Assembly (NCBI GenBank): GCA_000004695.1
Contig: CM000154.2
Location: 4,352,001-4,416,000, forward strand
Source of the DNA: Dictyostelium discoideum
Taxonomy: Eukaryota
DNA length: 64,000 nucleotides
Direction of reading: 5' to 3'
The notes below the pieces were generated by a model. The model saw only the letters and a list, made by a program, of their open reading frames with translations. It searched no databases and was not told the DNA's origin. Shown piece by piece: positions 5,593 through 34,337 of the stretch (the stretch's first letter is position 1; the number at the start of each line of letters is the position of its first letter). The position numbers were made by a program, and so were the translations under genes.

Positions 5593-5684
5593 AATAAATA
5601 AATAAATATATAAAAATAAAAAATAAAAATAAATAAAAATAAATAAATAAATAAATAAATAATAATGTTCCTTATTTGGAAATA

Positions 5685-5724
<40 letters not shown>

Positions 5725-5774
5725 AAAACATAAAACTTTTTTTAAATATCTATAAAAGATTTAAGAAATTAATT

Positions 5775-5823
<49 letters not shown>

Positions 5824-6105
5824 AATTTACCATCTTAACTTCTTTTAATCAAAAAATAAAAAAAAACAACTTTTTTTTGGTAAATCTTGGAATTAGATAA
5901 ATAAAACAAATGTAGGGGGAACAAAAATCCTAAAATTTCAAAACTTAATTTTTTAAGAAGTATATATTTTTTTATTTATTTTAAATTGAATTTTTTTTTT
6001 TTTTTTTAGATTTTTTTTTTTTATTGACAATGACTTTATTTTTTTTTTTTTTTGTTTGCATTAAATTAATTTCCCACCACACACCCCGCACAATAAATTA
6101 TCACA

Positions 6106-8111
6106 ATGGATAATAATAATAATCCAAATAATAATAATCCAAATAATAATAATAATAATAATAATAATGATTATAATAAATGTCATTATCATCCGACTAA
6201 TGAAATAAATTTAATTTGTTTAGAAGCAGAGTGTAAATTAATGCCATGTTGTGTAGCTTGTATGTCAATTAGTGGGAAACATCATAGACATAGTTTTGAT
6301 TTAGTTAATAATTGTATTTCAAAAATTATTGATAATTTTAAAAAAATATATCCAAATATTTCAAAAAGAATTAATGATTATAAAGAATTATCAGAAAAAT
6401 CAAATTCGATTCATTCAAATTCTAAATTAGATTTTTATAAAAATATTGCTCTTAATGATAAAGTTTTTGCAAATTTAATTAATACTTTAAGTTCAATTCA
6501 AAGAAATATAAAAAATGAATTACAAACAAATCAAGATAAAAATTATGAACTAAATTCAAATGAATCTTTACTAATAACTAATAATAGTCAAATACTTTCA
6601 AATATTTTAAATAATGTCTCAATTGATCATTTGGATGATTCAATTAATAATGATAATAATGATAATATTAATTTAGTTAAATATTATCAACAATCTTTAG
6701 AAGTTTTAAATGATGAAATCATTGAAATTGATTATCAAAATTCTTTACTAACTTTCGATCTTCAACTAATTGAAGAATTAAAAGAAAATTTTAAAAAAAT
6801 TTATTCAATTAATCAATCAGATAATATTAATATTGAAGATGAAGAAGAAGAAGAGGATGAAAAATTTAAGATTGGAATTGATGAAAATGGCAATGGGTTT
6901 GTAAAGAGTATGTATGGTGTGTGTAATTTTAAAGAGAAGGGGGTGGATGATGATGATTATTAATATGAATTTTTTTTTATTTTTTATTATTTTAAAATTT
7001 AGATGAAAATAAAAAGTATTATATTTATTCAGAGAATAGTGAACAAGAAGATAAAGATTCAGTTGCATTTGGAGAAGATTGTGGTAATTTATTAAACATT
7101 AGATCAAATAGAGTATTGAAGAATGTAATGTTGTTAGATGGATTTAAAGAGAGTTTAGGAGTTGGTGTATTACCAGATAGTATTGAATATTTGGAGATAT
7201 GTGATATTAAAACACCTTTGGTGGTTGGATCAATACCATCAAGTGTAAGAACATTGGTATTAAATGATGGATTTAGTCAACCATTAGAACCTGGTATTAT
7301 ACCATCAAGTGTAAAAAGTTTAGATTTACATAATATTAAAAATCGATTAAATGTTGGTTCAATTCCAAGATCAGTTGAAAATTTGGTTTTAAATAATGGA
7401 TTTAATCAACCACTTTTAGTTGATGTAGTATCGTTAATATCAGATGGTGTAAAATTTTTAACATTACATAAAATTAAAAGCCAATTAAAGGTTGGCTCAA
7501 TTCCAAAAACAGTAAAGAAATTAAGTATTGGTGATGGATTTTCACAATATTTGGAAAGTGGAATTGTTCCAAATGGTGTAATTACATTATATATTAATAA
7601 TATTAAACAACAGTTACAAATTGGATCAATTCCAACTTCTGTAAAATTTGCAACTTTTGGTGAAGGATTTAGTCAATTGCTTTCACCTGGCATTATTCCA
7701 AAGGGTGTAATGATGTTGTTTTTCTATAACATTAAATGTCCATTGGTTATTGGTTCAATTCCAATTTCAGTTACATGGCTAACTTTTTATAATGGTTTCA
7801 ATCACTCAATATCACCTGGTATAATCAGTAAAGGTGTGGAAAGATTATTATTACATGATATTAAACAACCATTAGAAATGGGTTCAATACCAACAACAGT
7901 AACTCACATCGTACTTGAAGATGGATTCAAACAAGCACTAACACCAGGAATCATTCCAAATTCAATAAAAGAATTAACTTTAAAAAATGTAAATCTTCAA
8001 TTAGTTGAAGGTTCAATACCAAGACAAATTCCAAGAATTATTTTAAATAATTTTAATGAATCATTAGAAAATTGTAATTTAGATCAATCCGTAGAAATAA
8101 AAATAGAGTAG
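6106..8111 (+). CDS. Copy 1 of the B-box-like zinc finger / coiled-coil / FNIP-repeat gene. Two exons: 6106..6907 and 7003..8111. An alternative acceptor would start exon 2 at 7033.
   Basis: Exon 1 encodes [37 protein letters not shown] followed by a heptad-rich region. The donor is a|GTATGT at 6908, in phase 1. The acceptor is TTTAG at 7001-7002. Exon 2 encodes 13 or more FNIP repeats (GSIP..V..L.L.DGF[SN]Q.L.PGIIP). The frame is open across the splice. Confidence 0.65.
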
Positions 8112-8113
8112 GG

Positions 8114-8163
<50 letters not shown>

Positions 8164-8378
8164 GATTTAATAAAAATTAAATTTTAAAAAAAAAAAAAAA
8201 AAAAATTCCTTTTTAAAAATAAAATAAATAAAATTATTAAATCGATGTGCAATTTTTTTTTTTTTTTTTTTTTTTAAAATTTTAAGTTTATTAAATCATG
8301 ATTGTTTTTTTTTTTAACCACCCACACCACAAACCATCAACAAAAACACTATTTCCATTTTTTTTTTTTTTTAATTTT

Positions 8379-8420
<42 letters not shown>

Positions 8421-8446
8421 AATCAATAACAAATAATATATTAAAA

Positions 8447-9181
8447 ATGAATAAAGATAATAACAATAACAAATGTTCATTTCATCCAAATAAAAATTTA
8501 GAACTTTTATGTTTTAATTGTAAATTTATTCCATGTTGTATGCACTGTATTTCTCAACATGGTGAACACCATGGTCATAAAACAAATTGTATAGATTCAA
8601 TTGAAACATCAAATATTCTCAAAATGATGAATTTATTTAAAAATGATATTATTCCAAAATTAAAAGAAATAGTTGAAAATGATAAACAAATAATCAATAA
8701 ATCTGAAAATATTTATAATGAAATTAATCAACAATATGAAAATAATAAAATTTTAGTAACAAACGAATTTAAAAAGTTTCATACATTAATTCAAATTAAT
8801 CAATTAGATATTGAAAATCAATTAAGAACAACATTTGATGAAAATACAATAATATATACTATTATTAATTCATCAATCAATAATAATAATAATTATAATA
8901 TTAATGATGATAATAATTATGGTATTAATATAGAATCAATAGGTAATAAATTAGATAATCTCAATGATACTCACTTACAATATTGTAATGAAAATCAAAT
9001 TTATAACTGGCTTGAGAATCAAGATATTTATCAATTATTTAAAAAATATCAACAATCAACCTTAATAGTTAATAATAAAAATAATATTGAAAATTTAAAT
9101 AAATTAAAAGAATATAATAATCAATCAATAGTATTTAAAATAATGAATGAAATTAAAAATAATTTAAAATTAATTTATTAA
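8447..9181 (+). pseudogene. Truncated 5' part of a B-box/FNIP paralog (copy 2a). It has the B-box and coiled coil only and ends prematurely after ...EYNNQSIVF.
   Basis: It is homologous to exon 1 of copies 4-6 ([51 protein letters not shown]...). It diverges and stops where intact copies continue for about 60 more codons. There is no intron and no FNIP exon. Transposon-like insert DNA follows. Confidence 0.6.
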
Positions 9182-9339
9182 ATTTTATGAAAAAATGAAA
9201 AGTTGGTGTAAATATTTTTATTTTTTTATTTTTTTATTTTTTTATTTTTTTATTTTTTTTTTTTTTTTATCCAGATTTTAATTTTTTATTTTTTATTCAT
9301 CCCTTTTTTATTATATTTTAGTTATTTTATTTAACAACA

Positions 9340-10200
9340 AACACTGTTCTTTTTCTTTTATTTCTTTAAGTTTATCTTTGTCTAATTCAATGCCAAAACC
9401 ATCATTATATGTTTCTTGAAGATCAGCTAACATACAGAGTATTGACGATTTTGTTTAAATGATCCAAATTTCCTCGGTATGTTGGAGTTATTTTAAAATG
9501 ATTAATTTTTAAAAAAAAAGTTTTCCACATACACACTATTGGAGCTTACAAAATTAGGTAAAGATATATCTAGAAAAAAAAATAATAAAATAATAAAAAA
9601 TAAAAAATACCAATAATATAATTATTTTAATAATAATAAAAAAAAAAAAAAATAAAAAAAATAAAAATAAAATAAAATTAATAACAAAGTATTAAAAGTA
9701 AGAGATTTGGTTATTTAAATAATTACCCAATATTGGAAAGCTATCATGTTTACGAATAATTTTACCATTATTATAGTATTGTGGCTCTATTTTGGTATTT
9801 TCTAGTATATATTTGATCATGAACGGAACCTGGGAATCCCTCAGGATGTAGTAACAATAATCTGTATGATCTAGTGCATACCTCACAATGAAATTTGACC
9901 ACATGACTTTACTTTTACCAGAATAATAATTTTTTTTTGGATTTGATGAGTGGGAGTTTCAATATCAATAGAGGTAGATTCAGCAGCAATCGCACGATAA
10001 AGCACATTAGATATAGGATGTTTTAAAAAGCCAACTGATTCAACAAGTTTATCTCTTTTCCATTATTTCCTTGCATACAACTCAAAGTGAATGGTTGACT
10101 ATAGTGATTTTGAAATGTTTTTGGACTAATACCAAAAGTAACACATATCTCATAAATTGGAAGATATTGTTTCCAATATAAGAGAGTCTAACACAAAAAA
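9340..10200 (-). mobile_element. Degenerate Tc1/mariner-like (DDT-type) DNA-transposon fragment. It is a transposase pseudogene with stops and frameshifts.
   Basis: Minus-strand conceptual translation gives a helix-turn-helix-like segment (WKQYLPIYEICVTFGISPKTFQNHYSQ) followed by KSKVMWSNFIVRYALDHTDYCYYILRDSQVP..GKIIRKHDSFPILGNY. This resembles the Tc1 HTH and the start of the DDE domain (..WSDESKF..). A+T is lower than in the flanks, and the reading frame is broken by several stops. Confidence 0.35.
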
Positions 10201-11091
10201 AAAAAAAAAAATAAATAATGTTATTAATTAATTCATTTTATTTTTTACATTTTTTATTTTTTTTTTCTGTTTATAATTTTTTTTTTTTTTTACTTTGTTT
10301 AATTTAGGACTTGGTGTAATTTTACAAAATTATTTAATTTAATTTAATTTAATTTAATTTAATTTAATTTAATTTTTTTTCATTTTTTTTGTAAAAAAAT
10401 AAAAATTTTCACACCAACTTTTCATTTTTACATAAAATTTTTTTTATTTTTTTTTTTATTTTTTTTATTTCTATTTCGAAAAATTATTAAGATGGTTAAA
10501 AAAATAAGAGTTATTATACCCTTTATGTTGGAAAAGGCTTATGAAGATATAAATAATAATGATTATATAAATAAAAAAAATATTTACGGGATTTGGGTAT
10601 ATAAAACAAATAATACAAAAAAAATGTATATTGAAACAAAATCAGAACAAGGTTCACTTCCTCTTCTAGTTCATTTACAAAATGAACATTTATCGTCTAG
10701 AAAAGTCGAGTTATGGCTTGTTGAAAATAAAATTTATATACCAAAGTTAAGAGAAAAATATTTATATTTTTTAAAATGCAAAAAATGGTAAGATAAATTT
10801 ATTTATTTATTAAAATAATAATATATTAATATTTGTTATAATAAGTCAAAAAAGAAAAGATAAAAGAAATAAAAAAAAAAACCAAATTAAAGAAAAAGAA
10901 ATTTACATTAAAGTTGAAGATAATAAAGAAATTAGCGAAAACGAACGTGATTTAATTGAAGAAAATAAAAAAGAAGTTAGCGAAAATGAATGTGATTTAA
11001 TTGAAGAGGATGATGATGAAATATTATGTGAAGATGATGAAATACCATGTGGACAACCAATCTCATCGGAAGAAGATGAGCCAACTCGTTA

Positions 11092-11550
11092 TACTTTAAC
11101 ATTGATTTCAAAAACGATCAAATTGAAAGAAATAAAAATGACAATGGTACAAATAAAAAAGAAAAATTAAAAATTGAAATTGATGAAAATAAATTTAAAT
11201 TTATAATGAGTAAGTGTAAATAAAAATTTAATAATTATTATTATTTTATATTAATATTATAATATATGTGTATATATTTATATATATATATATTATAAAT
11301 AGATGATAATAAAAAATATTATATATATTCAAAGAATAGTAAATTTTCAGATTATCAAGATAAAGATTCAATTGCATTTGGAGAAGATTGTGGTAGTTTA
11401 TTAAAATTTAAATTAAAAACAAATATAAAGAGGGTTATGTTATTAGATGGATTTAAAGAAAGTTTAGAACCAGGTGTATTACCAAATGGTATTGTACATT
11501 TAGAAATGAACTGGTATAAAAAAAGTTTTTGAGGGAAAAAAAAAAAGGAG

Positions 11551-11581
<31 letters not shown>

Positions 11582-12232
11582 AAAAAAAAAAAAATAAATT
11601 AATCCACATTTTTAGTAATTTTATAAAGAGTAAAAAAAAAATTTAATTTTCCTTTTTTTTAAAAAATAAATCCACTACTTTTGTGTGTAAACAAACTAAA
11701 ATGGCTTCTTAAGAATTTATTTTTTCCCCTTTTTAGTTTTTTTTTTATACCTGAATCTGGAAAATTAAAAATTCATAATTTTGAAATTATTATAAAATAA
11801 TGTTTAAAAAAAAGGGGTAATGGTGAAAAAATTAATAAAAAAATTACGATTAAAAAAATTATTTTAAATGATTTTCCAGAAGAATCATTAAAAGTTTGTA
11901 AACTAAATAAATCTATAGAGATAAAAATTTTTAAATAAAATAAAACAAAAAACTATTATATAAACAAAAAAATAGAAATAAATAAATTAATTTTCATTTG
12001 TAAAATTGGATTTAGTCTTGATTGGTTTAAAAATTTGATAATATTATACCATATGTTTTGTCATTGGAATTTTTTTAAAAGAATAAGTTTGATAAGAAGA
12101 AAATATATGTTAGGTTTTCTTTGAAGGTAATTAATGATCATCAAACCTTTCATTTTCAGTATTGATGAAGTGAAATTAGGAATTGGATACATTTTATAGT
12201 TTTTTTTTTTTTTAATTTCATATGAATTTTAC

Positions 12233-12263
<31 letters not shown>

Positions 12264-12975
12264 AAAAATTGATTGAATTTGTATACCATTTGAACCTAAA
12301 AGATGGATTCTCTCAAACATTAAAGCCAGGTGTTATTCCAAAAACTATTAGAATTGTAACATTACACCAAATAACAAAACCATTAGTAATTGGATCAATA
12401 CCAAATACAGTCTTAAGAATAGAATTTCATAAAGGCTTTAACCAATTCCTTACTCCAGGTATTATATCAGAAGGTGTTAAATCATTAGAATTTTAATGAT
12501 TTAACAGTTTTAAGAATACAATTTCATAAAGGATTTAACCAATTACTTACAGCTGGTATTATACCAGAAGGTGTTAAATCATTAGAATTCCACCAAGTTA
12601 AATACTTATTGATTGTCGGTTCAATTCCTAACTCGATTTATTTATTATGTTTACTGGATGGCTTTAATCAAATAATATCACCAGGCATAATTACTAATGG
12701 AGTGTGCGAGTTAGGTTTGGGAGAAATTAAACAACCATTATTTGTGAATTCAATACCTAATTCCGTCACCAAATTTAATATCATTAATGGATTTTATCAC
12801 TAACGCCTGGAATCATTTCAAATTCAATAAAGAAATTAACTCTATGTACTGTAAATATATGAAATTAGTTGAAGGGTCAATTCCATAAAATTATTTTATA
12901 TGGTAATGTTGAACCATCATCTTTAGATGTTTGTAAATTAGATAGATATGTACAAATAATAAAAAATAATTTATA
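11092..12975 (+). pseudogene. 3' part of a B-box/FNIP paralog (copy 2b/3). It carries the end of exon 1 (..[18 protein letters not shown]), the intron, and a FNIP exon broken by stops, frameshifts and a local duplication.
   Basis: The donor a|GTAAGT is at about 11210 and the acceptor at about 11330. The FNIP frame ([25 protein letters not shown]) runs into a stop at about 11530. Further FNIP repeat fragments lie in three different frames between 12269 and 12960. Confidence 0.6.
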
Positions 12976-13187
12976 ATAATAGTAGAATCTTTGTAAATAA
13001 TAAAGGATCAAAACAAAAAAATAAAAATAAAAATAAATAAATAAATTAAATAAATATATAATTTGGTTCATCAATTTTATCAAATATTCTATTAATTTAA
13101 TTTGAATTTGTTTTTTTTATTTTTTTTATTTATTTATTTTTATATTTATTATTTAACTATTTAATTAATTTTATATTTTCTTTTGTT

Positions 13188-13330
13188 TCAATCATACAAT
13201 TAATTCACTCGAGATATAAATATATTCTTGTCTTTGAGTGATCATTTATTAATGTATGAATTTTTAAAAATTTTCAATTAATCCATTGCCTTTGTTGTTG
13301 ATGTTGTTGGTAGTCTAGTGGATTTGATAA
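13188..13330 (-). pseudogene. Intergenic pseudo-exon fragment. It is about 75% identical to an internal coding segment (28741..28870) of the coiled-coil gene 28155..30317.
   Basis: There is a shared core gagata(t/a)(c/a)aatatattcttgtctttgagt, with extended similarity through ..tcatttaatccattgcctttgttgttgatg compared with tcatttcatccattgttgttaatgattg. Confidence 0.55.
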
Positions 13331-13470
13331 TATTATAATTTATTTATCTTAATATAAAAAGTAACCCAATTGATTCAAAAAAAATAAAAAATAAACCAAT
13401 TCAGTCTTTTTTTGTTTTTTATTTTAATATCTAAATTTTATAATATCTCAATTTTTCACTCAAATTTTTA

Positions 13471-13517
<47 letters not shown>

Positions 13518-13655
13518 TTTTTAAGATTTTTTAATTTTATTATAATACGATCACTGTCTACAATAATAATAACACATTAAACTATTATCAAAAATAATAA
13601 AAATTTTTACCCACACATTTTTTTTTTTTTTAATCAATAACAAATAATATTAAAA

Positions 13656-15557
13656 ATGAATAATGATTTAATATTAGATAATAACAATAACAATAAGAAA
13701 TGCACACTTCATAGAAATAAAATTTTAGAACTTTTATGTTTAGATTGTAAATTTATTCCATGTTGTACTCAGTGTTTTTCCAAGATGGTCAACACCATGG
13801 TCATAAAACAAATTGTATGGATTCAAAAGCAACATCAGATATTCTCAAAATGGTGAATTTATTTAAAAATGATATTATTCCAAAATTAAAAGAAATAGTT
13901 GAAAATAATAAACAAATAATTAATGAATCTGACAATATTTATAATGAAATTAAACAACAATATGAAATTAATAAAAATTTGGTAATAGATGAATTCAATA
14001 AATTTCATAAAATACTTCAAATTATTCAATTAGATATTCTAAAGCAATTAGAAACAACATTTGATGAAAATACATTAGTAAATACTATTATTAATTCATC
14101 AATCAAAAATAATGATAGTTATGGTATTACTATGGAATCAATGAGTAATGAAATAGATAATCTCAAGCATACTCACTTACAATATTGTGATGAAAATCAA
14201 ATATATAACTGGCTTGAAAATGAAGAAATTTATCAATTAATTAAAAAATATCAACAATCATCATTAATAGTAAATAATAAAAATTATATTGGTAGTTTAA
14301 ATATATTAAAAGAATATAATAATCAATCAATACTATTCAATAATTAAATAATTGATGATATTAAAAATAATTTAAAATTAATTTATGAGTTTGATAACAA
14401 TAAAAACAACCAAAATAAAAACAATAATCGTATTAATTATAATAAAAATGAAAAATTAAAAATTGAAATTGATGAAAATAATTTTAAATTTATAAAGAGA
14501 AAGTAAGAATTTAAATTATAAATAAAATTTAAATTATTATTAATATATATCAATATATATTATAAATAGATGATAATGAAAAATATTATATATATTCAAA
14601 GAATAGTGAATTTTCAAATCATAAAGATAAAGAGTCAATTGCATTTGGAGAAGATTGTGGTAGTTTATTAAAATTTCAATCAAAAACAAATTTAAAGTTA
14701 TGTTATTGGATGAATTTAAAGAAAAATTAGAACCGGGTGTATTACCAAATGGTATAAAATATTTGGAAATAGGAGATATTATAACACTATTAGTAGTTGG
14801 ATCGATACCACCTGGTATCATTCCTTCTTATCCACCAAATGAAGGTCATTGGTTTAAATAATTTTCATTTCCATTGTTCTTAGGTGTAAGATTCCTAACA
14901 TTACATAAAATTAAAAGTGAAGTAAACATTGGATCAATTCCAGTGTCAGTATCGCGTTTGAATCTAAAAGATGGGTTCTCTCAAACATTACAGCCAGGTG
15001 TTATTCCAAAAACTGTTAAAACTGTAATATTACAGGAAATAACAAAACCATTAATAATTGGATCAATACCAAATACAGTTTTTACAATAGAATTTCATAA
15101 AGGCTTTAACCAATTACTTACAGCAGGTATTATACCAGAAGGTGTTTATTCATTGGAATTCCACCAAGTTAAGGACTTATTGATTGTCGGTTCAATTCCT
15201 AACTCGATTTATTCATTATTTTTAAAGGAAGGCTTTGATCAAAAAATATCACCAGGTATAATTACCAATGGAGTGGGCCTATTACATTTAGGAGAAATTA
15301 AACAACCATTATTAGTGAATTCAATACCAAACTCTGTCACCAACTTGTATATCACTAAAGGATTTAATCAATCACTAACACCTGGAATCATTCCAAATTC
15401 AATAAAGGAATTAACATTGGGTACTGACAACATACAATTAGTTGAAGGATCAATTCCAAAAACAATTCAAAAAATTATTATAAGTGGAGATATAGAACCA
15501 TCATTCTTAAATGTCTGTAAATTAGATAAATCTATACAAATAGATAGCAATTATTAA
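13656..15557 (+). pseudogene. B-box/FNIP paralog (copy 4) with a 1-nt deletion in the B-box (about 13780), a premature stop at 14345, and a frameshifted 5' end of the FNIP exon.
   Basis: The track ORFs 13656..13856 and 13760..14347 are the same gene in two frames. Intact copies read tgtatttctaaagatggtgaa where this copy reads tgtttttccaagatggtcaa. The donor FIKRK|GTAAGA is kept. After the acceptor the exon-2 frame is lost (..[14 protein letters not shown] is out of frame). Only 14874..15557 stays open. Confidence 0.6.
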
Positions 15558-15723
15558 TAATAGTATACTTTTTTATTTATTAAAGTATTAACTTATCTCA
15601 AATATTTTAATTTTACAAAGAATAAAAATAAAATAAAAAATAAAAAGGGAAGAAGGAGAAAATATTGAATAGTGGAATTCCATTTGTAAATATTAAAGGA
15701 TCAAAAACATGTGAAAAAAAATA

Positions 15724-15756
<33 letters not shown>

Positions 15757-15881
15757 AATAAATATAAAGTTGGGTTCATCAATTTTATCATATATTTCAA
15801 TTAATTTAATTTGAATTAATTTTTTAATTTTATATTTTTATTATTATTATTCAAAGATTTAATTGGTTTAATTTTCTTATG

Positions 15882-16030
15882 TTTCAATCATACAATTAAT
15901 TCACTTGAGATATCAATATATTCTTGTCTTTGAGTGAACATTTATTAATATATGAATTGAAATTTTCATTTAATCCGTTGCCTTTGTTGTTGATGTTGTT
16001 GGTAGTCTAGTGGATTTGATAATATTATAT
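15882..16030 (-). pseudogene. Second copy of the same pseudo-exon fragment (homologous to 28741..28870), located in the spacer after copy 4.
   Basis: The core cacttgagatatcaatatattcttgtctttgagtgaaca matches 28751-28790 almost perfectly. Confidence 0.55.
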
Positions 16031-16519
16031 TTATCTTAAAATTGCTCCTGATCGACACTCAAAATTAAAAGGTTCGATGATCAATAATTACCTTAATTGA
16101 AAAATTAACCCAATTGATTCAAAACCAATATTATCTTCTTATTTAATTCTTATAAAGTTAGTAAAGATAGACCCACATGAATATAAGACAATTCCAATGA
16201 CATTTGGGGATGGATGTATTTTATAATTGTTTATTTTTTTAATTTCACATTTCATTTTAGAAATAAAAAAAAAAAAAAATAAAATAAAATTAAAAAATTG
16301 GGATTAGATTTAAAATCTCAATTTTTCCAATTAAAATTTTAAAAAAAAAAAAAAAATAAAAAAAAAAAAAAATTGTATTTTTATTTTTTGATTTTTTTAA
16401 AATACTCGTGCAACACTATAACAACTCATTATACTATTAATAATACAATAACAAAAAAAAAAAGAAGAAAAAAAAAAACTTCTCACACCCCACTTTTTTT
16501 TACTTTATTAATATTAAAA

Positions 16520-16916
16520 ATGAATAAAGATATAATATTAGATAATAATAATAACAATAACAAATGTACACTTCATACAAATAAAAAACTAAAACTTTTA
16601 TGTTTAGAATGTAAATTTATTCCATGTTGTATTCAATGTATTTCTAAAGATGGCGAACACCATGGTCATAAAACAAATTGTATAGATTCAATGGAAATAT
16701 CAAATATTCTCAAAATGATGAATTTATTTAAAAATGATATCATTCCAAAAATAAAACAAACAGTTGAAAATGATAAACAAAAAATCAATGAATACTTCAA
16801 ATTCTTCATTATTTAATATGATATCGAAAGGCAATTAGAAACAACATTTGATCAAAATACATTAATATATACTATCATTAATTCATCAATCAAAAATAAT
16901 AATCAAAATAATAAGG

Positions 16917-16979
<63 letters not shown>

Positions 16980-18357
16980 GCAATATTAATAATGATAATA
17001 ATGATAATGATAATTGTTATTATGGTATTAATATAAAATCAATAAGTAATAAATTAGATAATCCAATGATAATCACTTACAAAATTGTGATGAAAATCAA
17101 ATTTATAACTGGCTTGAAAATGAAGAAATTTATCAATTAATTAAAAAATATCAACAATCATCATTATGAGTTTAATAATAACAACAACCAAAATAAAAAT
17201 GTTACTATTGTAGAAAACAATAATAGTATAAAAATAAAAAATTAAAGATTGAAATTGATGAAAATAATTTTAAATTTATAAAGAGTAAGTGTTAAAATTA
17301 CAAATAAAAGTGTAGTTTTATTATTATTATTTATTAACATAATAATAATTTTATAAATGTGATTATAGGAAATATTATATTCAGAGAATAGTGAATTTTC
17401 ATTTTATAAAGATAAAGATGCAATTGCATTTGGAGAAGATTGTGGTAGTTTATTAAAATTTAAAGAGAGTTATGATAATTTTAATTTAACCAGTGTTATG
17501 TTATTAGATGGATTTAAAGAAAGTTTAGAACCAGGTGTAGTACCATATGGTATTTATAATATGGAAATAGGTGATATTAAAACACCATTAGTAGTTGGAT
17601 CAATACCATCAACCGTTTCAAGTTTAACATTACATGATGGATTTAATCAATCATTAGAACCTGTTATTATTCCTTCTTATCCAAAAAATAATGGACTCAA
17701 GCCATATTATTGATATTTTCATCCAGTGGATGTGTAAGATACTTAGAATTACATAATATTAAAAGTGAACTTAAAATTGGATCAATTCCAGGGTCAGTAT
17801 GCCAATTGACATTAAAAGATGGATTCTCTCAAATATTAAAACCAGGTGTTATTCCAAAAACTGTTGGGATTGTTAGAATAACAAAACCATTAGTAATGGG
17901 ATCAATACCAAATACAGTTTTAACAATAGAATTTGATAAAGGCTTTAACCAATTACTTACAGCAGGTATTATACCAGAAGGTGTTATCGGATTAAGATTC
18001 CACCAAGTTAAGGACTTATTGATTGTCGGTTCAATTCCAAAATCGATTTATTCATTATTTTTCAAAGATGGCTTTAATCAAATATTATCACCAGGTATAA
18101 TTACTGATGGAGTGTGTGAGATAATTTTGGGAGAAATTAAACAACCATTATTAGTGAATTCAATACCGAATTCTGTCACAAAATTGCATATCATTAATGG
18201 ATTTAATCAATCACTAACACCAGGAGTCATTCCAAATTCAATAAAGGAATTAACTTTAGGTAGTGTAAAAACACAATTAGTTGAAGGATCAATACCAAAA
18301 ACAATTCAAAAAATTATTTTAAAAGGAAATATTGAACCATCATATTTTTTTTTTTGA
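16520..18357 (+). pseudogene. B-box/FNIP paralog (copy 5) with an internal deletion of about 100 bp plus frameshifts in exon 1 and a frameshift in the FNIP exon.
   Basis: Exon 1 stops at 16816 after KINEYFKFFII. The downstream frame resumes with ..IERQLETTFDQNTL. About 40 codons that are present in copy 6 are missing. The FNIP exon is split between the track ORFs 17498..17713 and 17710..18357. Confidence 0.6.
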
Positions 18358-18624
18358 TTCTTAATTATTTACAAAGTTGGAACCCTTTAAATATATCGCT
18401 AATAATTCAATTTATCATTTGCTGATATTGATTAGTTATTTGACGTTGTTGTTATTCTAGATTTAATTGATTTTTTTTTTTTTTTGATTTAAAAATTCCA
18501 ATTTTGAAATTAAAAAATAAATAAATAATATATAGAATGTTCATATTCATTTTAATTATATCTTATATAATTTTGTGCTCTATTTATTTGTAAAAGTTTT
18601 TTTTATAGTTAACTTAAAATTTAA

Positions 18625-18849: not shown

Positions 18850-21203
<2,354 letters not shown>

Positions 21204-21936
21204 TTATAAATAATTAAGTATTATTCCGATACCAATTCTCAAATATTACAGGATTAATTAATTTCAGAAATACTTCAAGTTCCTCAATAAAATTTCGAAA
21301 GGCAGCCAAAAACAAAAGATTTAAAATTATTTTTTAGATATTAATTAAATAGGTTTCAATTAAATTACATTTCTGGTAGCAGTAATAACATTTATTTTAA
21401 TAAAAAAAAAAAAAATAATAATAATTACTCATTTTATTCAATTTTAATTTATACTAATTATTATTATCATACAAGTAGTAAACAAAGGAAGAGTATTTGA
21501 TGTTTATCAAGTATGTGTTTATTTTATTTTATTTTATTTTTTTGTAAAATTTTTATTTTTCACTCGATTAAATTGAAACTAATTTCTTTTTGATCCTTTA
21601 TTATTTACAAATATTCTACTATCCATCATTTTCTCCTCTTCCTCTTTTTTTAATTCTTGTAAATTTTAATATTTGAGAATGGATAGGTATAATACTCTTT
21701 TATTTATTATTATTAATATTTATTTATTAATACAGATTTATCCAATTTACATCTAACCCAATTCACACCTAATTTTATTAAATCTGATTTCGATAGGTGA
21801 TTTAAATTTACAAGATAACACGTTTCTAATGGTTGTTCGATTATATCGTAAATAGAACTTGTGGCGGTTATTGGTTATTATTATTAGTTGTTGTTGCTTA
21901 TTAATGATATTACTATTACTTCTATTGCTATTATTA

Positions 21937-22003
21937 ATATTACTATTACTATTACTATTACTATTACTATTACTATTACTATTACTATTACTATTACTAT
22001 TAG
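21937..22003. repeat. (TATTAC)~11 hexanucleotide repeat.
   Basis: Direct reading of the sequence. Confidence 0.9.
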
Positions 22004-23277
22004 TTGGATTTGATTTTTTTTAACTGAATCATTTAAAGTTAAAACAAATGAGCATTTATCTGGTTGTGTTGCTTTGATACAATAGTTACCTACTTATAAA
22101 TGGTTGAAATTTACCATCAATATTGCTGATTGTTGAAGGCACTTTTGGTAATGTAATTGATACATTTTATTTACAGTCACTTGATTTTATTTCAAATTTG
22201 TATGTTTAAAAAAAAAAAAAAAAAGAAAAATAAACTAATTCAATCAAATCAATCACTTTTTTGATTTTTTTTTAAAGACAAAAAGATTTATAAATTTTAT
22301 AAATTAGAGATGGTGTAATCTGAAAAAAAAAAAAAAAATGAGAAAAATAAAAAATTTATTTTTTGATTATTTTTTTATTTATTTATGTTTAACATTTAGT
22401 TGGATTCAAACCATCCTGTTAAATCAATTTTCTTTTTTTTTTTTCGGGATATTGTTAATTGAAAACTTCAAACATCCCAAATATTGTATGGCTTTTAATA
22501 TCAGAATTAATTTTTTTAATTCTTTTTGATAGCTGTTTTAGTTCTTTTTTGTTGAAAATTCAAATTTAAATTGGTGATAATATCATCAGCAATTAAATTT
22601 AAATTTTTAATTAATTCTGATTTTTTTAAAATGACTACACCAACTTTGTATGGAAGCTCATATAAAAAATTTTTATTAAATGAATATGCTGTAGAAATTT
22701 TTTTTTTTTTCTAATGAAAGATTGTTTAAATCTTATTTTGGATTGATAAAAATAGTTTTTTTTTATCTCCAAACAAAGTTAAGAGATATAATATAAATTT
22801 AAATTTAAAAGATTTATTATTATATTTACATTTTATATAATGTTATCCAACAATTGATCAACTCGTAAAATATCATAAAATGTCTATTTTTAATATAGTT
22901 TTATTATTGATGGTAAATAATAAAACTATATTAAAAAAATTAAATAATGTAAAAAAAAACATTTTAATTTTAAATGATTTAAATCCAATAAATAGTAAAG
23001 ATAGGTTATCTCAAATACCATTAATTATTGATGGTATTAAAATATTTTCAGTTGTGGATACAACATATTTAATATACAGAATTAGATGAACATGCTAGAA
23101 TAATTATTTTTATTTTTAATATTTGGATAATTTTTAATCCAACGAGAGCTAACAAATAAAATCTAAATCATTTTTAATTTATTCATACATTTGTTTTTTT
23201 TTTTTTTTTTAATTTTTTTTTTTTTTTTTAATTTTTTTTTTTTTTTCAAATTTGATTTCTAATTTATAAAATCATAT

Positions 23278-23321
<44 letters not shown>

Positions 23322-23422
23322 TTTTTAAAATCTTTTTAAATTTAAAATACTGTCACTGCATAATAACAACACATTGTACCCTTAGATAAAAAAAAATAAT
23401 AATTAATAATTCTTTTTTTAGA

Positions 23423-25665
<2,243 letters not shown>

Positions 25666-26103
25666 TAATAATAATAAATATGTCTATATCCATTCTCAAA
25701 TATTAAAATTTACAAAGAATTAAAAAAAAGAAAAAGGAAAGGAAGAAGGAGAAAATGATGAGTAGTAGAATATTTGTAAATAATAAAGGATCAAAAACAA
25801 AAAATAAATTCCATCAATTTTATCCTTAATTATTATTATATTTTTAAATTTTTTTTTTTTTTTTTTATTGAAATTATTTTTTAAATATAATCAATTTTAT
25901 ATTTTTTTTTAATTAAAATAAAAGCTAGATATTTTTTTTTAATTAAAATAAAAGCTAGATATTTTTTTTTTTTTTTTTTTTTAAATTTTTTTTTTTTTTT
26001 TTTTTTTTTTCACTCCAAATCAAAAAGTTTTGTTTAATTTTATTTTTAGTTTTTCAGATAAAAAAAAAAAAAACATAAATACTTTAATAATTCTTTTTTT
26101 AAT

Positions 26104-26823
26104 ATGATTGAAAATAAAATAGAACAGAACTGTGCACTCCACACAAATAAAAATTTAGAATTTTTATGTTTAGATTGTAAATTAATACCATGTTGTACAT
26201 TATGTATTTCTAGAGGAGGTGAACATCATCGTCATGGAATTGATTCATTAGAATCAATACAAACATCTTCAATTCTTTCAATGATGAATAGTTTTAAAGA
26301 TGTTTATCCAAAAGTAATTGAAAGAATAGAAAATGATCAACAGATATTAAAAGATTCTGATGAAATTTTCAATGAAATTCAATCACAATATAATAAAAAT
26401 AAAATCACACTAAACCAAGAATTTAAAAAAATTCATAACATACTTTCAATACTTGAATTGGATATTGAAAGACAATTAACTACAGATTTCGAAATAAATA
26501 CATTAATAAATACAACTATAACCTCTTCAATAAATAATGATATTGACAATTATAATAAAAATAAAAATAATAATTCAATCACAGATATATTAAATATTTC
26601 TATAAAAAATATACAACAATATAATGATGATGATTACTATAAAATAGATTCAAATTCAATCGAATTAATAAAACAATACCAACAATCATTACTATTATTA
26701 AATAATAACAATAATATTGATAATTTAAATAAATTAAAAGAATATAATAATCAAACCATTAAATTCGATAACCAAATAATTAATGATATTAGAAGTAATT
26801 TAAAATTAATCTATTCTTTTGAA

Positions 26824-26917
<94 letters not shown>

Positions 26918-28044
26918 CTGAAAAATTAAATATTGAAATTGATGAAAATAATTTTAAATTTATAAAGAGTATGTTGTATAAATAAATAAATAGATAAATA
27001 TATATATATAAATAAATAAATAAATATTAACAATATTGATATATTATTATAAAAATAGAACAAAATAAAAAATATTATATTTATTCAGAGAATAATGAAT
27101 TTCCAAAAAATGAAGAAAGAATTGCATTTGGAGAAGGTTGTGGTAGTTTATTAAAAGTTAATTGGAATAAGAATTTAAAGAATGTAATGTTATTAGATGG
27201 ATTTGAAGAAAGTTTAGAACCAGGTATATTACCAGATGGTATTGTACATTTAGAGATATTTGATATTAAAACAGAATTAGCAGTTGGATCAATACCATCA
27301 ACAGTTACAAGTTTAACATTTAATGATGGATTTAATCAATCAATTGAAGTTGGTATTATTCCATCAAGTGTTATTTATTTAGATTTACATGATATTAAAC
27401 AACCATTAAAGATTGGTTCAATCCCACAATCAGTACAAGATTTGAAACTTTGCAATGGATTCTCTCAACCATTAGAACCAGGTATTATTACAAATAAAAT
27501 TAAAACATTAAGTATTCATGAAATTAAAACTCAATTACAAATAGGATCAATTCCAAATAGCGTCACTCATATGGTATTTTACGATGGCTTTAACCAATTA
27601 CTTTCAGCAGGTATTATACCAGAAGGTGTTTCATGGTTATTCTTTTTTAATATAAAAATCCCATTAGTTGTTGGTTCAATTCCTCAATCAATTTATTATT
27701 TAGTTTTCAGTGATGGTTTCAATCAAACAATATCACCAGGTATAATTACTAATGGTGTGGAAATTTTATGTTTACGTGATATTAAACAACCATTAGAAGT
27801 AAATTCAATACCAAAATCTGTAACCAATCTACTTATTGATAGTGGTTTCCAACAACCATTAACACCAGGAATCATTCCAAATTCAATAAAAGAATTAGCA
27901 TTAGGAAATATAAAAACTCAATTAGTTGAAGGATCAATTCCAAAGAAAATTCAAAAAATTATTTTAGATAAAAATTTCAACCAATCCTTAGAAATTTGTG
28001 ATTTAGATAAGAGTGTAGAAATAAGAACAAATTATTTAAAGTAA
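26104..28044 (+). CDS. B-box/FNIP paralog (copy 8), apparently intact. Two exons: 26104..26968 and 27059..28044 (alternative acceptor gives 27089).
   Basis: Exon 1 is about 97% identical in nucleotide sequence to exon 1 of copy 7, apart from the Asn tract. The donor a|GTATGT is at 26969. The acceptor AAAAATAG is at 27056-27058. The FNIP exon resembles that of copy 1 rather than copy 7. Confidence 0.65.
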
Positions 28045-28154
28045 AAAAAAAAAAAAACAAAAAAAAAAAAATAGAATTCAATAAACTTTATTGAATATTA
28101 AAGATTTTTTAAATAGTATATATTGTTTATTATGTTTTATGTATGATTTAGATA

Positions 28155-28606
28155 TTAAAACCAACCAGACATAAAAGATCCTTTTTCTTTTTCTTTTTCT
28201 TTTCCATTGCCATTACCATTCTGAATTGGTGATGATGTATTACTATTATTATTTGGTGGCGAAAATAATGGTTGTGTTTGAGTTTGAGTTGTTTGAATTT
28301 GTGGTGGTTGCATTTGAATTTGTGGATTGTGACTATTTTGTTGTTGTTGTTGTTGTTGTTGCTGTAAATTTGATTTTAAATTTAATGGATCTAATAATGG
28401 TTGTGGTTGTAAATTATGTGGTGATTGAGCGCCATTACTTAATGATTCTTGTGTTATTATAAAGCTATTATGATTAATACTACTGCTACTATTACTACTA
28501 TTATTACTATTATTATTATTTGATTTTACAATTGGTGATGAATTTGATTTTATATTGCTATTTGTATTATTCGTACTATTATTATTATTATTATTTGTAT
28601 TATTAC

Positions 28607-28685
<79 letters not shown>

Positions 28686-30317
28686 TAAACCTTTTAATTG
28701 ATTTAATTCCTGAATTAATTTTAAATTATCTTTTTTTGAATCATTTAATTGATTAGAGATATCAATATATTCTTGTCTTTGAGTTAGAATTGAATCTTTG
28801 AATTTATTTTTCATTTCATCCATTGTTGTTAATGATTGTTGATAACGAGTTAACATTTGACTATATCTTTCATTTGAGAATTCAAATTTACCTTCAGATT
28901 CTTCCAATTTTCTTTTTAAATCATCGTTTTCTTCATGAAGTTGTTTCTCTAATTTCAATACTCTTTGTTTATGAGTATCTCTCTCCAAAGTGACAGTTTT
29001 TAAATCGATTTTCAATTTTTCAATGGTTGAATTCATAGAGATTGATTTCACTTCAGTTTCTGATATTTTATTGGTTAAATCTGATATTTTATTCATTAGA
29101 TCTTCTCTCTCTCTTTGAAGTGTACGAATTGTATCTCTAAGCTGTGATGGATCTCTATTCATTAAATTATCTCTTGCTGGTGTTGGTTTATTATTTGGTG
29201 TTGATGTTGATGATGATGATGTTGATGTTGTTGTTGGTCTAGTTGGGCTTGACAATATTCTACCTGATGTTGTCATTAATGTTGTACTTGCTATTGGTTT
29301 CTTTAATGGACTTGGTGTTGGTTTATTAAGTGATGATGATGATGATGATGATGATGATGTTGTTGTACTAGTAATTGGTCTATGGAGTGATGATGATGAT
29401 GTTGATGTTGTTGATGGTGTTGGTTTATGAAGTGATGATGATGTTGTTGTTGTATCTTTATGAGTATGCTCTTTACTATCAGAATGAGTTGAATAAGAAG
29501 ATAATACAGGTGATGCATCAATTGGTGATGTTTTATTTGAAGAAGGTGGAGTTGGTGATACTCTTGGTGTTAATTTATTTGAACCTAAACTACTACTACC
29601 ACCACCACCACCACCACTACTACTATTATTATTTGCAGGCATTGGTGGTTTTAATGATGATCCTGATGATGATAAACTCTTTCTATCTTTTGTTGTTGTT
29701 GTTGTTGTTGTTGTTGATGGTGTATCTGTTGATTTATTCGATGATATACTTGGTCTAGATGATGATGATGATGATGATGATGATTTTGAAGGTAATGTAT
29801 GATGATGAGAATCAGTTTTTTTCATCATTGATGCTACAGTTGGTGTTGATAATTTATCAGTTAATTTTTTAGATGATAAAGTTGATGAAGCTGAATTTGA
29901 AGTTGAAGAAGTAGAGGAAGTACCTCCTGTTGTTGATTTTCTTGGACCTGGGAATGTACTTGATAATGATGTTGATGATAATCTATCAGACATTAATGGA
30001 TTTGATTTTAATGTAGTTGAATTATTTGATGTTGATGATAAATTTGTTTTTGATTTATTGGCTGTTAAAGTTGATGGTGTTTTTTTTACAGTTGATGATG
30101 TTGTTGATGATGATGATGATGATGATGATAATGATTTAGTTTTTGATAATGTTGATGAAATTGGTGTTGTTGAAACTGGTTTGTGTGGTGTTGATGATAT
30201 TGTAGTTGTAGTTGTTGAAGATGGATGTGTAGCTGTTGATGGTTTAGTTGATTCATTTATAGATTTCTTATCACCATCATTATTACCACCATTAATTAAT
30301 GAGGTTGGGCTTGACAT
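28155..30317 (-). CDS. Protein of 720 aa. It is Ser/Thr-rich and has a central coiled-coil region (..LQREREDLMNKISDLTNKISETEVKS..LEKQLHEENDDLKRKLEESEGKFE..), then poly-Asn and a Gln-rich tail. Function unknown.
   Basis: Continuous minus-strand ORF from Met (30317) to stop. The composition and heptad pattern can be read from the translation. Confidence 0.6.
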
Positions 30318-32254: not shown

Positions 32255-32305
<51 letters not shown>

Positions 32306-33331
32306 TTGATTATTATTATTTTGATTATTATTATTATTATTATTAATTAAAGAATCATCATTTTGTTGTAAATATTTTGAAGATGAAATCCAAAATTGTC
32401 TACCATTTAAACTTGGTATATTATTTAAAATGATTTCAGATAATCTTGATCTAATTTCAATGAATGATGGTCTAATTGATGGATCATGTTTCCAACATAA
32501 TCTAATTAAATCTTGAATACCTTTTGGTAAATGGTCCAATGGTAAATGTGATTCTCTTTCCATATCAGTTTTAATTTGTTTAACTTGTTCTCTTGATAAT
32601 GATTCATATGGTAATGTCCAATTTAAACATTCCCATAACATTATACCAAATGAAAATACATCAACTGATTTATTAATTAAATTATTATTTTGATTATTAT
32701 TACATAATAATTCTGGTGGTGAATATCTATATGATCCCATATTTAAACTATTATTATTATTATTTTGATTATTATTATTTAAAAATTTACTAATACCAAA
32801 ATCAATTAATTTTAATTTATTATTTTTTGAATTTTTTAAAATATTTGAAGGTTTTAAATCGAAATGAATAATACCAATTTCATTGTGTAAATAAATCATA
32901 GCATCAACAATTTGTTGAAAATCTTGAATTACTTTTAAAGGATTTGGTAATGATGATGATGGTGACAATGGTAGTGACTGACTTGGATATTTATCCAAAC
33001 TATTACCATCGATAAATTCTAATAATATAATTCTTTCAATGGTTGAATAAGTTATAATCTTTACAATATTTGGATGATTTAGTCTCTCCAATATTAAAAC
33101 TTCATTTTCAAACTCTTTTGAAATTAAACTACTACTTAATGATGGTTTGAACCTTTTCATTGCTGTACCCATATATTTATAAATTGAACATTGACCACCT
33201 TCACCAATTTTATTACTATCATTAAATATCTCCTCTAATCCATTATTTGGTAATAATGTTGTTGTATTATTTAATAGTTGTGTCCTTGGTGATATATTAT
33301 TATTATTTGATTGTTGTAACATTGAATTATT

Positions 33332-33371
<40 letters not shown>

Positions 33372-34337
33372 GATGGTGGTGGTGGTGGTAGTTGTTGTTG
33401 TTGTAATTGAATTAAATTTGGTAATAATGAAGAAGATGATGATAATGATGTTCTTAAACTATTTGACCTTATTAAATTTTGAATTGATTGAATTCTTTGT
33501 AATGGTGATGACGATGACGATGATGATGATAATGTTAATGGTGATGATGATAATGGTGATGATGAAATATTACTATTATTATTACTACTATTATTGATAG
33601 ATGATGATAATGATGATGTTGACAAACCACTTGATGAAGCTGATAATAATGAAGCTGATAATAATGATGTTGATAATAATGATGATGATGTTGAATTTGA
33701 CATTGAAAGTGATGATAATGATGAAAATGATGTATTATAACTAACACCACTATTATCTTTAATGGGTGAAATGGGTTTTTGTTGAAGTTGTTGCAGTTGC
33801 AGTTGCTGTAATAGTTCTTGTTGTTGATCTTTATATATTGGTTTTTTTGGTATTACTTTTGTTTCATATCTTTGTTCTATAATCTCAATCTCTTCTTTTT
33901 CTTTTTCTTTCCCTTTTTCTTTTCCTTTAATTGATTTATCACTATCTCTACTCTTTCCAATATCTTTTGTATTATCATCTTCTACGACATCGTCATCCTC
34001 TTCTTCATCACTATCTTCTTCATCCTCTTCATCCTCTTCATCATCATCATCTTCATCACTATCTTCTTTTATGAATGTTTGAAGGAATTTTAAGTTGAAT
34101 GGTTTATTCTAAATAAAAGAAATGTTAAAAATTTATGTTGGGGAAAAATAAAAAAAAATAAAAAAAAAAAAAATAAAAAAAACATACCAAATAGATAGTT
34201 TGTAACTTTCTAATTCTGGAATCAATAGTATCAAATAATATTTGTTTCTCTTTTGTTGACAATTGTTTAACTAATGCTATGAATGAATCTTTATCATCTT
34301 TTTTTAATATTAATATTTTCTTTTCAAATGAATTCAT
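31355..34337 (-). CDS. Protein kinase of the TKL-like Ser/Thr type. Two exons: 34337..34188 and 34108..31355, giving about 967 aa. Between the N-terminal exon and the kinase domain there is a long Asp/Glu-rich stretch.
   Basis: The catalytic motifs are present in order: IGEGGQCSIY (GxGxxG), AMKRF (VAIK), HFDLKPSN (subdomain VIb, non-RD), DFGISKF, SPPE and DVFSFGIMLWE. The 782-aa track ORF remains open upstream of its first Met, with no stop back to an acceptor TTTAG|AAT at 34110/34108. Exon 1 (MNSFEKK..RKLQTIYL, 50 codons) ends at the donor ttg|GTATGT at 34187, in phase 0. Confidence 0.65.

Follow-up and report, generated by a model that had tools for sequence, protein, structure and literature searches.

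The window analysed here is a 64,000-nucleotide stretch of the Dictyostelium discoideum genome (assembly GCA_000004695.1, contig CM000154.2, positions 4,352,001 to 4,416,000 of the forward strand), which is very AT-rich (about 20% GC) and whose ORFs contain the long (AAT)n tracts typical of Dictyostelium. On its plus strand lies a tandem array of two-exon genes, delimited by ORFs, Pfam matches, self-BLAST, assembly gene calls, and identity matrices. Exon 1 encodes a B-box zinc finger/coiled coil and exon 2 encodes FNIP repeats (Pfam zf-B_box and FNIP); both exons are merged into single genes of 616-757 aa in the annotation of NCBI assembly GCA_054883475.1. In a related species, no Pfam domain class is more abundant than the FNIP-repeat proteins (preprint 10.64898/2026.03.01.708701). 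The last unit of the array is faced by a convergent coiled-coil gene on the minus strand. The array, its units and this gene are located as follows:

6106-28044, plus strand, tandem array of two-exon genes
6106-8111, plus strand, array unit
8447-11935, plus strand, array unit, broken
12269-12973, plus strand, array unit, 5'-truncated
13656-15557, plus strand, array unit
about 16520-18357, plus strand, array unit
about 18850-21203, plus strand, array unit
23423-25665, plus strand, array unit
26104-28044, plus strand, last array unit
28155-30317, minus strand, coiled-coil gene, a single-exon ORF of 720 aa, intact in ORF search and translation

The units of the array differ in their degree of relatedness. 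According to the identity matrices, the B-box exons of the four middle units share 82-89% mutual identity and those of the last two units share 97%, while the FNIP exons of every unit but the first and last are 83-86% identical to one another and that of the last unit is 72-74% identical to each of the others. The penultimate unit combines a B-box exon (23423-24469) that is 97% identical to that of the last unit (26104-26985) with an FNIP exon (24652-25665) that is only about 72% identical to its counterpart there (27187-28044) and groups with the middle units (83-86%), and is thus a chimera that arose by unequal crossing-over or gene conversion. The poly-Asn-encoding (AAT)n tracts of the B-box exons (19285-19539, 23852-24393, and 26824-26931) range from about 35 to about 180 repeats between units, so repeat expansion and contraction are fast relative to unit divergence. 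Outside the array, within a minus-strand ORF at 727-2592 (621 aa), positions 1106-2371 hold three tandem 414-nt units with 89% matches, which is an internal protein-repeat expansion.

Several parts of the array are rearranged. The region 8447-12973, nominally the second unit, really consists of two broken units, with these components:

8447-9181, B-box exon of the broken region
9182-11130, insert of about 2 kb without a Pfam match
about 11300-11520, start of an FNIP exon in the broken region
11854-11935, isolated FNIP C-terminus and stop, 77% identical to 8033-8104
11936-12268, spacer after the isolated FNIP C-terminus
12269-12973, FNIP exon, 5'-truncated and frameshifted

The ORFs of the insert, like those of the 2.2-kb spacer at 21204-23422, gave no Pfam match. 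Within that spacer, 21518-21751 is an inverted copy of an FNIP exon's last approximately 40 nt together with some 200 nt of adjoining 3' flank; its identity to 15516-15762 and 25627-25801 is 68-84%. In the unit that ends at 18357, the FNIP exon terminates early (..NIEPSYFFF, then the stop) and is without the conserved C-terminus (..LDxCKLDKS..); homology to the other units breaks off at 18347, and the last approximately 15 codons and the 3' flank are missing. Furthermore, the spacer segment 12109-12268 has two blocks in common with a later spacer (16040-16296), one inverted (12109-12177 vs. 16040-16109, 77% identity) and one direct (12171-12268 vs. 16198-16296, 81% identity).

The coiled-coil gene abuts the last array unit with its 3' end, as the earlier note on this DNA had observed: the two stop codons (28042-28044 on the plus strand and 28155-28157 on the minus strand) are 110 nt apart. 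It is called as one single-exon 720-aa gene in GCA_054883475.1, where the locus is found on CM142511.1 at about 4.47-4.51 Mb, and its protein has a Ser/Thr-rich N-terminal half, a conserved coiled coil at about residues 385-545, and a poly-Asn/Gln-rich tail. No relative came up when the 160-aa coiled coil was used in a word-indexed homology search, and the exact 720-aa protein is absent from a clustered protein collection. An exhaustive HMMER search with the coiled-coil region against 1.84 billion representative proteins returned only two relatives, at 48-49% identity; both are dictyostelid proteins in which the coiled coil is conserved, and one is from Acytostelium subglobosum. The Acytostelium orthologue (363 aa, with a weak CCDC89 Pfam match) is situated in DF837574.1 about 3 kb from an FNIP-repeat gene on the same strand (region 10001-15624), a proximity that may be a coincidence because FNIP genes are very numerous in dictyostelids. 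The kinase encoded at 32287-33593 in the window has its closest database relative in Dictyostelium dimigraforme, where contig JBTAPM010000013.1 carries the kinase orthologue at about 80% nucleotide identity to the window. No coiled-coil orthologue is found within 10 kb of the kinase orthologue on that contig, and there is therefore either a synteny break or a species difference in gene content.

Fragments of the coiled-coil gene in two array spacers

Two spacers of the array contain sequence homologous to the interior of the coiled-coil gene. One follows the broken unit that ends near 12973 and precedes the unit beginning at 13656; the other separates the unit ending at 15557 from the one beginning near 16520. 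The homologous DNA comprises two elements, each a mosaic of pieces copied from separate parts of the gene (A and B), and a third, inverted piece (C). The source segments in the gene and the copies in the spacers are as follows:

28694-28844, minus strand, source of piece A, codons 492-542 (YQQSLTTMDEMKNKFKDSILTQRQEYIDISNQLNDSKKDNLKLIQELNQL), from local alignments to both elements and residue mapping
29217-29280, minus strand, source of piece B, codons 346-367 (..TSGRILSSPTRPTTTST..), from shuffles and coding-gene controls
29470-29525, minus strand, source of piece C, codons about 265-283 (PIDASPVLSSYSTHSDSKE), from alignment, shuffles and coding controls
13145-13355, minus strand, element 1, pseudogene mosaic of pieces A and B, from BLASTN, Smith-Waterman, stops and frameshifts (GC 19%)
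15835-16042, minus strand, element 2, pseudogene mosaic of pieces A and B, from BLASTN, Smith-Waterman, stops and frameshifts
16110-16167, plus strand, piece C in inverted form, about 65 nt beyond the right end of element 2, from alignment to the reverse complement

Piece A was detected in a BLASTN comparison of the kind that the earlier note had suggested. With the ATT tract of the gene removed and the whole window as the target, gene positions 28701-28844 matched 13151-13312 (74.7% identity, E-value 7e-22) and positions 28712-28844 matched 15856-16004 (75.2%, E-value 1e-18), and these two are the only matches in the window beyond the gene itself and low-complexity DNA. Simple repeats are abundant, with hundreds of spurious BLAST matches in the window. 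Since BLAST statistics are unreliable at 80% AT, the comparison was repeated by Smith-Waterman, with dinucleotide-preserving shuffles of the individual spacers as background. Element 1 scored 121 and element 2 scored 111, where the shuffles scored 30-32 +/- 4 (z about 21). Over the full extent of the piece, 28694-28844 aligns with 13145-13312 and with 15835-16004 at 126-127 identities, 24-25 mismatches and 19 gap columns, i.e., about 74.5% identity with gaps and 84% ungapped for both elements. The 29-nt core (GAGATATCAATATATTCTTGTCTTTGAGT) is shared without mismatch by the gene (28756-28784) and element 2 (15907-15935), and element 1 differs from it at a single position (13211-13239); the chance expectation for such matches is zero. 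A restriction of the similarity to this core, which according to the earlier note would refute the observation, does not hold: the similarity extends well beyond it and is significant against the shuffles. Seven residues that are invariant in both dictyostelid relatives lie within piece A (Y492, Q493, L496, K507, Q515, Y517, and L541).

The extent of the homology differs from that first proposed. The earlier note had described elements of about 140 bp matching 28741-28870, along with a weaker third trace at 18420-18470. Two of the three are real, with the boundaries of piece A revised to 13145-13312 and 15835-16004. At the coordinates first given, identity is 66-69% with gaps and 81-84% without. 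The left edge in the gene reaches about 28694, into the ATT tract, and continuation of the homology through 28845-28900 is weak (z 2-4) and is superseded by a match of the right ends of the elements to 29217-29280. The third trace scores at the level of chance both against the gene segment and against the two elements (z -1.0 to 0.1); that spacer finds its best match in another part of the gene (29151-29208), with a score of 41, and unrelated coding genes reach up to 50. A partial copy in a third unit is thus unsupported, and with it falls the order of units that had been derived from it. The remaining spacers gave z of at most 3.1 on either strand by Smith-Waterman, and no further copies were found in 8112-8446, 9182-11130, 21204-23422, 25666-26103, or 5593-6105; nor does any piece of the coiled-coil gene accompany the inverted copy at 21518-21751.

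Piece B makes up the right ends of the elements. Positions 13293-13353 and 15985-16029 match gene positions 29217-29280 with z of about 7 (0/300 shuffles), at a score of 52 versus 21-36 in 20 comparisons with the other coding genes of the window. Pieces A and B are 372 nt apart in the gene and directly adjoin in the elements, such that codons 492-542 lead into codons 346-367; the elements therefore skip 28845-29216 (codons 368-491), and the skipped codons are the best-conserved part of the 720-aa protein. At the joint is an imperfect TTGTTGATG-type repeat that both gene sites contain, the two copies being TTGTTAATGATTGTTG at 28822-28840 and TGATGTTGATGTTGTTG at 29217-29237. A motif near 12040 (TTTGATAATATTATACC) that resembles piece B scored no higher than the controls and was rejected.

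Piece C is shorter and inverted. Gene positions 29470-29525 match the reverse complement of 16110-16167 at 78% identity over 59 columns (z 5.3, 1/300 shuffles), with a score of 51 versus 22-33 for coding controls. Element 1 retains just the first 15-19 nt of this piece, at 13362-13380, and the 19-mer TAACCCAATTGATTCAAAA, which occurs in the window only at 13362 and 16106, is common to both spacers. A possible fourth piece (gene 29785-29833 vs. 12120-12168) scored 38 with controls of at most 28; it is left unproven because its inverted homologue at 16040-16109 scores only 25.

The elements lie 170-280 nt downstream of an FNIP stop and 300-500 nt upstream of the ATG of the next unit. An alignment of the two spacers covers 12978-13355 and 15668-16042 with 82% identity, and promoter-proximal homology to the other units begins 110-280 nt past the elements (13463 and 16320), with AT-rich DNA of no assignable origin between. 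To the left of the elements, the 3' tail and 3' UTR of the gene (28090-28460) have no counterpart (z at most 1.0), and 28045-28650 as a whole yields only poly-A matches, which are uninformative.

Decay, direction and relative age of the copies

In both elements, every frame on the minus strand, the strand of the gene, contains stop codons, and there are frameshifts as well. Relative to the gene, the elements carry indels of 1, 2, 4, and 5 nt, and the mismatches at codon positions 1, 2, and 3 number 10, 7, and 7 in one element and 6, 12, and 7 in the other. The stops, frameshifting indels and even distribution of mismatches over codon positions constitute a pattern of neutral decay. The elements nevertheless keep a coding-like GC content of 19-21% inside spacers of 9-13%. 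Because the segment is conserved in the dictyostelid relatives, the gene is the ancestral coding sequence and the spacer copies are derived. The central claim of the earlier note, that spacers of the array carry pseudo-exon copies of a segment inside the coiled-coil gene next door, is therefore borne out by homology, stops and frameshifts: judged by their sequence, the elements are dead, non-coding partial copies of that gene.

Both elements have in common four insertions relative to the gene (ACAA, TTA, CCT, and TG), an identical A-B junction, and the identical 19-mer start of piece C. The shared insertions indicate that both derive from one already diverged fragment that was copied again together with an array unit. 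Between the two elements the ungapped identity is 91%; for the FNIP exons and spacer flanks beside them, identity is 85-91%. Homology, the direction from gene to fragment, decay, a single origin and re-duplication are thus demonstrated. With respect to the proposal that the ancestral duplicated unit included part of the neighbouring gene, the shared indels and the 91% identity confirm that the mosaic was recopied with its unit; that the unit simply ran into the gene is not established.

The identities give an approximate chronology. The 84% ungapped identity between gene and elements fits a capture of the fragment at roughly the point where the last unit diverged from the forerunner of the middle units; one partner in this comparison, the gene, is under selection and slow-changing. 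The two copies of the element, at 91% identity, arose later, along with their units.

Possible origins of the mosaics

The elements are probably non-functional, decaying copies of the gene, captured through a tandem duplication that had one of its breakpoints within the coiled-coil gene. In such a history, coding DNA of the gene would have entered the 3' flank of one array unit in a single copying event, most likely by tandem duplication of the gene-adjacent unit with the distal breakpoint in the coding region at or beyond about 29525. The orphaned fragment, free of selection, would then have lost most of its length through at least two deletions, including the low-complexity 3' tail and 372 nt between two imperfect TTGTTGATG-type repeats; a small inversion would have turned one piece around, and point changes would have accumulated together with frameshifting indels. 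The degraded mosaic would subsequently have been recopied with its unit and spacer, giving rise to the sequences now at 13145-13355 and 15835-16167, and the other spacers would have lost the fragment or never had it. In the unit ending at 18357, a deletion at 18347 would have removed the last codons together with the 3' flank, and loss of the fragment from other spacers is plausible given this truncated unit and the rearranged spacer at 21204-23422. The breakpoint within the gene and the order of deletions and inversion are steps that we infer.

Position and orientation speak for a breakpoint in the gene, since pieces A and B sit 3' of the FNIP stop in gene orientation with the ATT-rich tract on the left, as in the gene, and thus on the same side of the FNIP stop as the real gene after the last unit. 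The succession of FNIP stop, intergenic DNA and gene agrees in orientation and order, but strict collinearity fails: 28045-28650 is without a counterpart, 28845-29216 is skipped, and piece C is inverted. A simple run-in should also have carried the 110-nt intergenic DNA and the last approximately 500 nt of the gene, and the inverted piece C needs an inversion beyond tandem duplication and deletions. The missing 3' tail and UTR, the 372-nt skip and the inverted piece consequently point to several later deletions and an inversion, which could account for the lost collinearity, or to complex template switching. In the latter case, replication template switching of the FoSTeS/MMBIR type, or templated filler DNA, would have patched three stretches of the gene into a junction during duplication of an array unit or repair of a break; the patch would later have been copied with the unit, and no large gene fragment would ever have been present. 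This one-step origin is rather unlikely. In its favour, the pieces are short and discrete (about 151, 64 and 56 nt), in mixed orientation with the third inverted, and all derive from one stretch of about 830 nt in a gene at a distance of 12-15 kb, so that several short nearby-templated segments of mixed orientation, as defines templated insertions, are present. The A-B joint falls in imperfect microhomology (TTGTTAATGATTGTTG / TGATGTTGATGTTGTTG), the ATT simple repeat at the left edge could act as another, and the 3' tail and UTR of the gene leave no trace. Other inverted copies also occur in the array (21518-21751, and 12109-12177 against 16040-16109). However, at about 16% divergence the junctions are too decayed for rigorous scoring of microhomology, and template switching does not predict the agreement in position and orientation between pieces A and B and the real gene after the last unit. 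Sequential events, for their part, are not far-fetched, because deletions and inversions are clearly frequent in the array. No intermediate state was found at the single related locus compared, that of D. dimigraforme. Of the two routes, a breakpoint in the gene is preferred, and the elements are relics under both.

Other readings can be set further aside. A retrocopy is rejected, as the mRNA 3' end (3' coding tail and UTR) is absent from the elements; intron loss is no test here because the parent gene is intronless. The possibility that the gene took up spacer sequence, or that the similarity is a chance artefact of AT-rich, low-complexity DNA, is practically negligible. The window does, at about 20% GC, abound in simple repeats and spurious BLAST matches by the hundred, yet the shuffle z is about 21 and no comparable match exists to other spacers or genes; moreover, the segment encodes a conserved dictyostelid coiled coil, and it is the spacer copies in which the stops and frameshifts sit. 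Shuffles, dictyostelid conservation and the pattern of decay thus already refute both versions. A functional element is very unlikely as well. Here, plus-strand transcripts reading through from the FNIP genes would make the elements a source of antisense or small RNA, or the elements would serve as promoter or enhancer for the next unit, as the earlier note had raised with its conserved antisense or regulatory alternative. This would be in keeping with the 29-nt stretch identical to the parent gene, with the location between an FNIP stop 170-280 nt away on one side and the next ATG 300-500 nt away on the other, and with the retention of the element in two copies. An exact run of 29 nt is not rare, however: by our estimate, about 0.15 would be expected at 84% identity over 150 nt. 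Since the elements are conserved at 91% and the neighbouring FNIP exons and flanks at 85-91%, there is no extra constraint on them; several AATAAA motifs lie ahead of them, and five other spacers are without the element. Plus-strand RNAs of the elements fold no more stably than shuffles (z -0.47 and -0.13), an Rfam search of the elements found no family, and ARAGORN found no tRNA in them, which speaks against a structured RNA. An antisense or regulatory role is therefore unsupported by conservation, RNA structure or Rfam, and the elements appear to bear no sign of function, a reading drawn from negative evidence. Even less credible is the more specific scheme whereby read-through from the FNIP genes, which are transcribed in the opposite sense, would make the mosaics yield antisense or small RNAs and so tie the expression of the coiled-coil gene to the activity of the array.

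Comparison with known systems and significance

The elements are ordinary duplicated (non-processed) pseudogene fragments, a by-product of segmental duplication. Homology to a parent, disabling mutations, an intact ancestral parent and the absence of an mRNA 3' end or poly-A tail, the features of this class, are all found. Like the duplicated pseudogene fragments at the edges of tandem segmental duplications, they are partial, co-oriented, near their parent, disabled, and spread by duplication of a unit. Unlike those, they form a mosaic of 210-330 nt in which the conserved core is skipped, one piece is inverted, and the 3' end of the parent is missing. Templated insertions of the FoSTeS/MMBIR type at rearrangement junctions are described mainly in human and yeast copy-number variants. 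They resemble the present elements in their short, non-contiguous, nearby source segments, mixed orientation and possible microhomology; the junctions here, however, are old and decayed, and sequential deletion and inversion gives the same pattern. Pseudogene-derived antisense RNAs and endo-siRNAs are described in mouse oocytes. As at such loci, the elements have a perfect or near-perfect parental match of 29 nt and are placed where read-through would give antisense RNA, but no hairpin or selective constraint was found in them. A parallel within the same organism group is provided by the duplicated tgrB/tgrC regions of Dictyostelium, which are reported to hold incomplete pieces both of these genes and of many of their neighbours (PMC12745789). 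There, too, duplicates and partial fragments lie in unalignable stretches next to tandem duplicates; in contrast to the hyper-rearranging tgrB/tgrC region, the present locus is a B-box/FNIP array, and nothing suggests recombination of the fragments back into the parent gene. The mosaics are thus another instance of a known phenomenon, and the three-piece structure in mixed orientation is their only unusual feature.

The importance of the finding is accordingly limited. For annotation, it serves as a warning that 13145-13355 and 15835-16167 are neither exons nor conserved regulatory elements. The mosaic could become a small case study of duplication in an AT-rich genome, but only if related genomes provide intermediates, and if the antisense reading were true, it would represent a pseudogene-derived regulator in a social amoeba. 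As a relative time marker, it places the capture and decay of the fragment before the duplication that yielded the two copies. For the locus itself, it records growth of the array from the end that borders the coiled-coil gene, or at the minimum an exchange of DNA with this end, and it adds a further case of partial gene relics in the fast-rearranging arrays of Dictyostelium.
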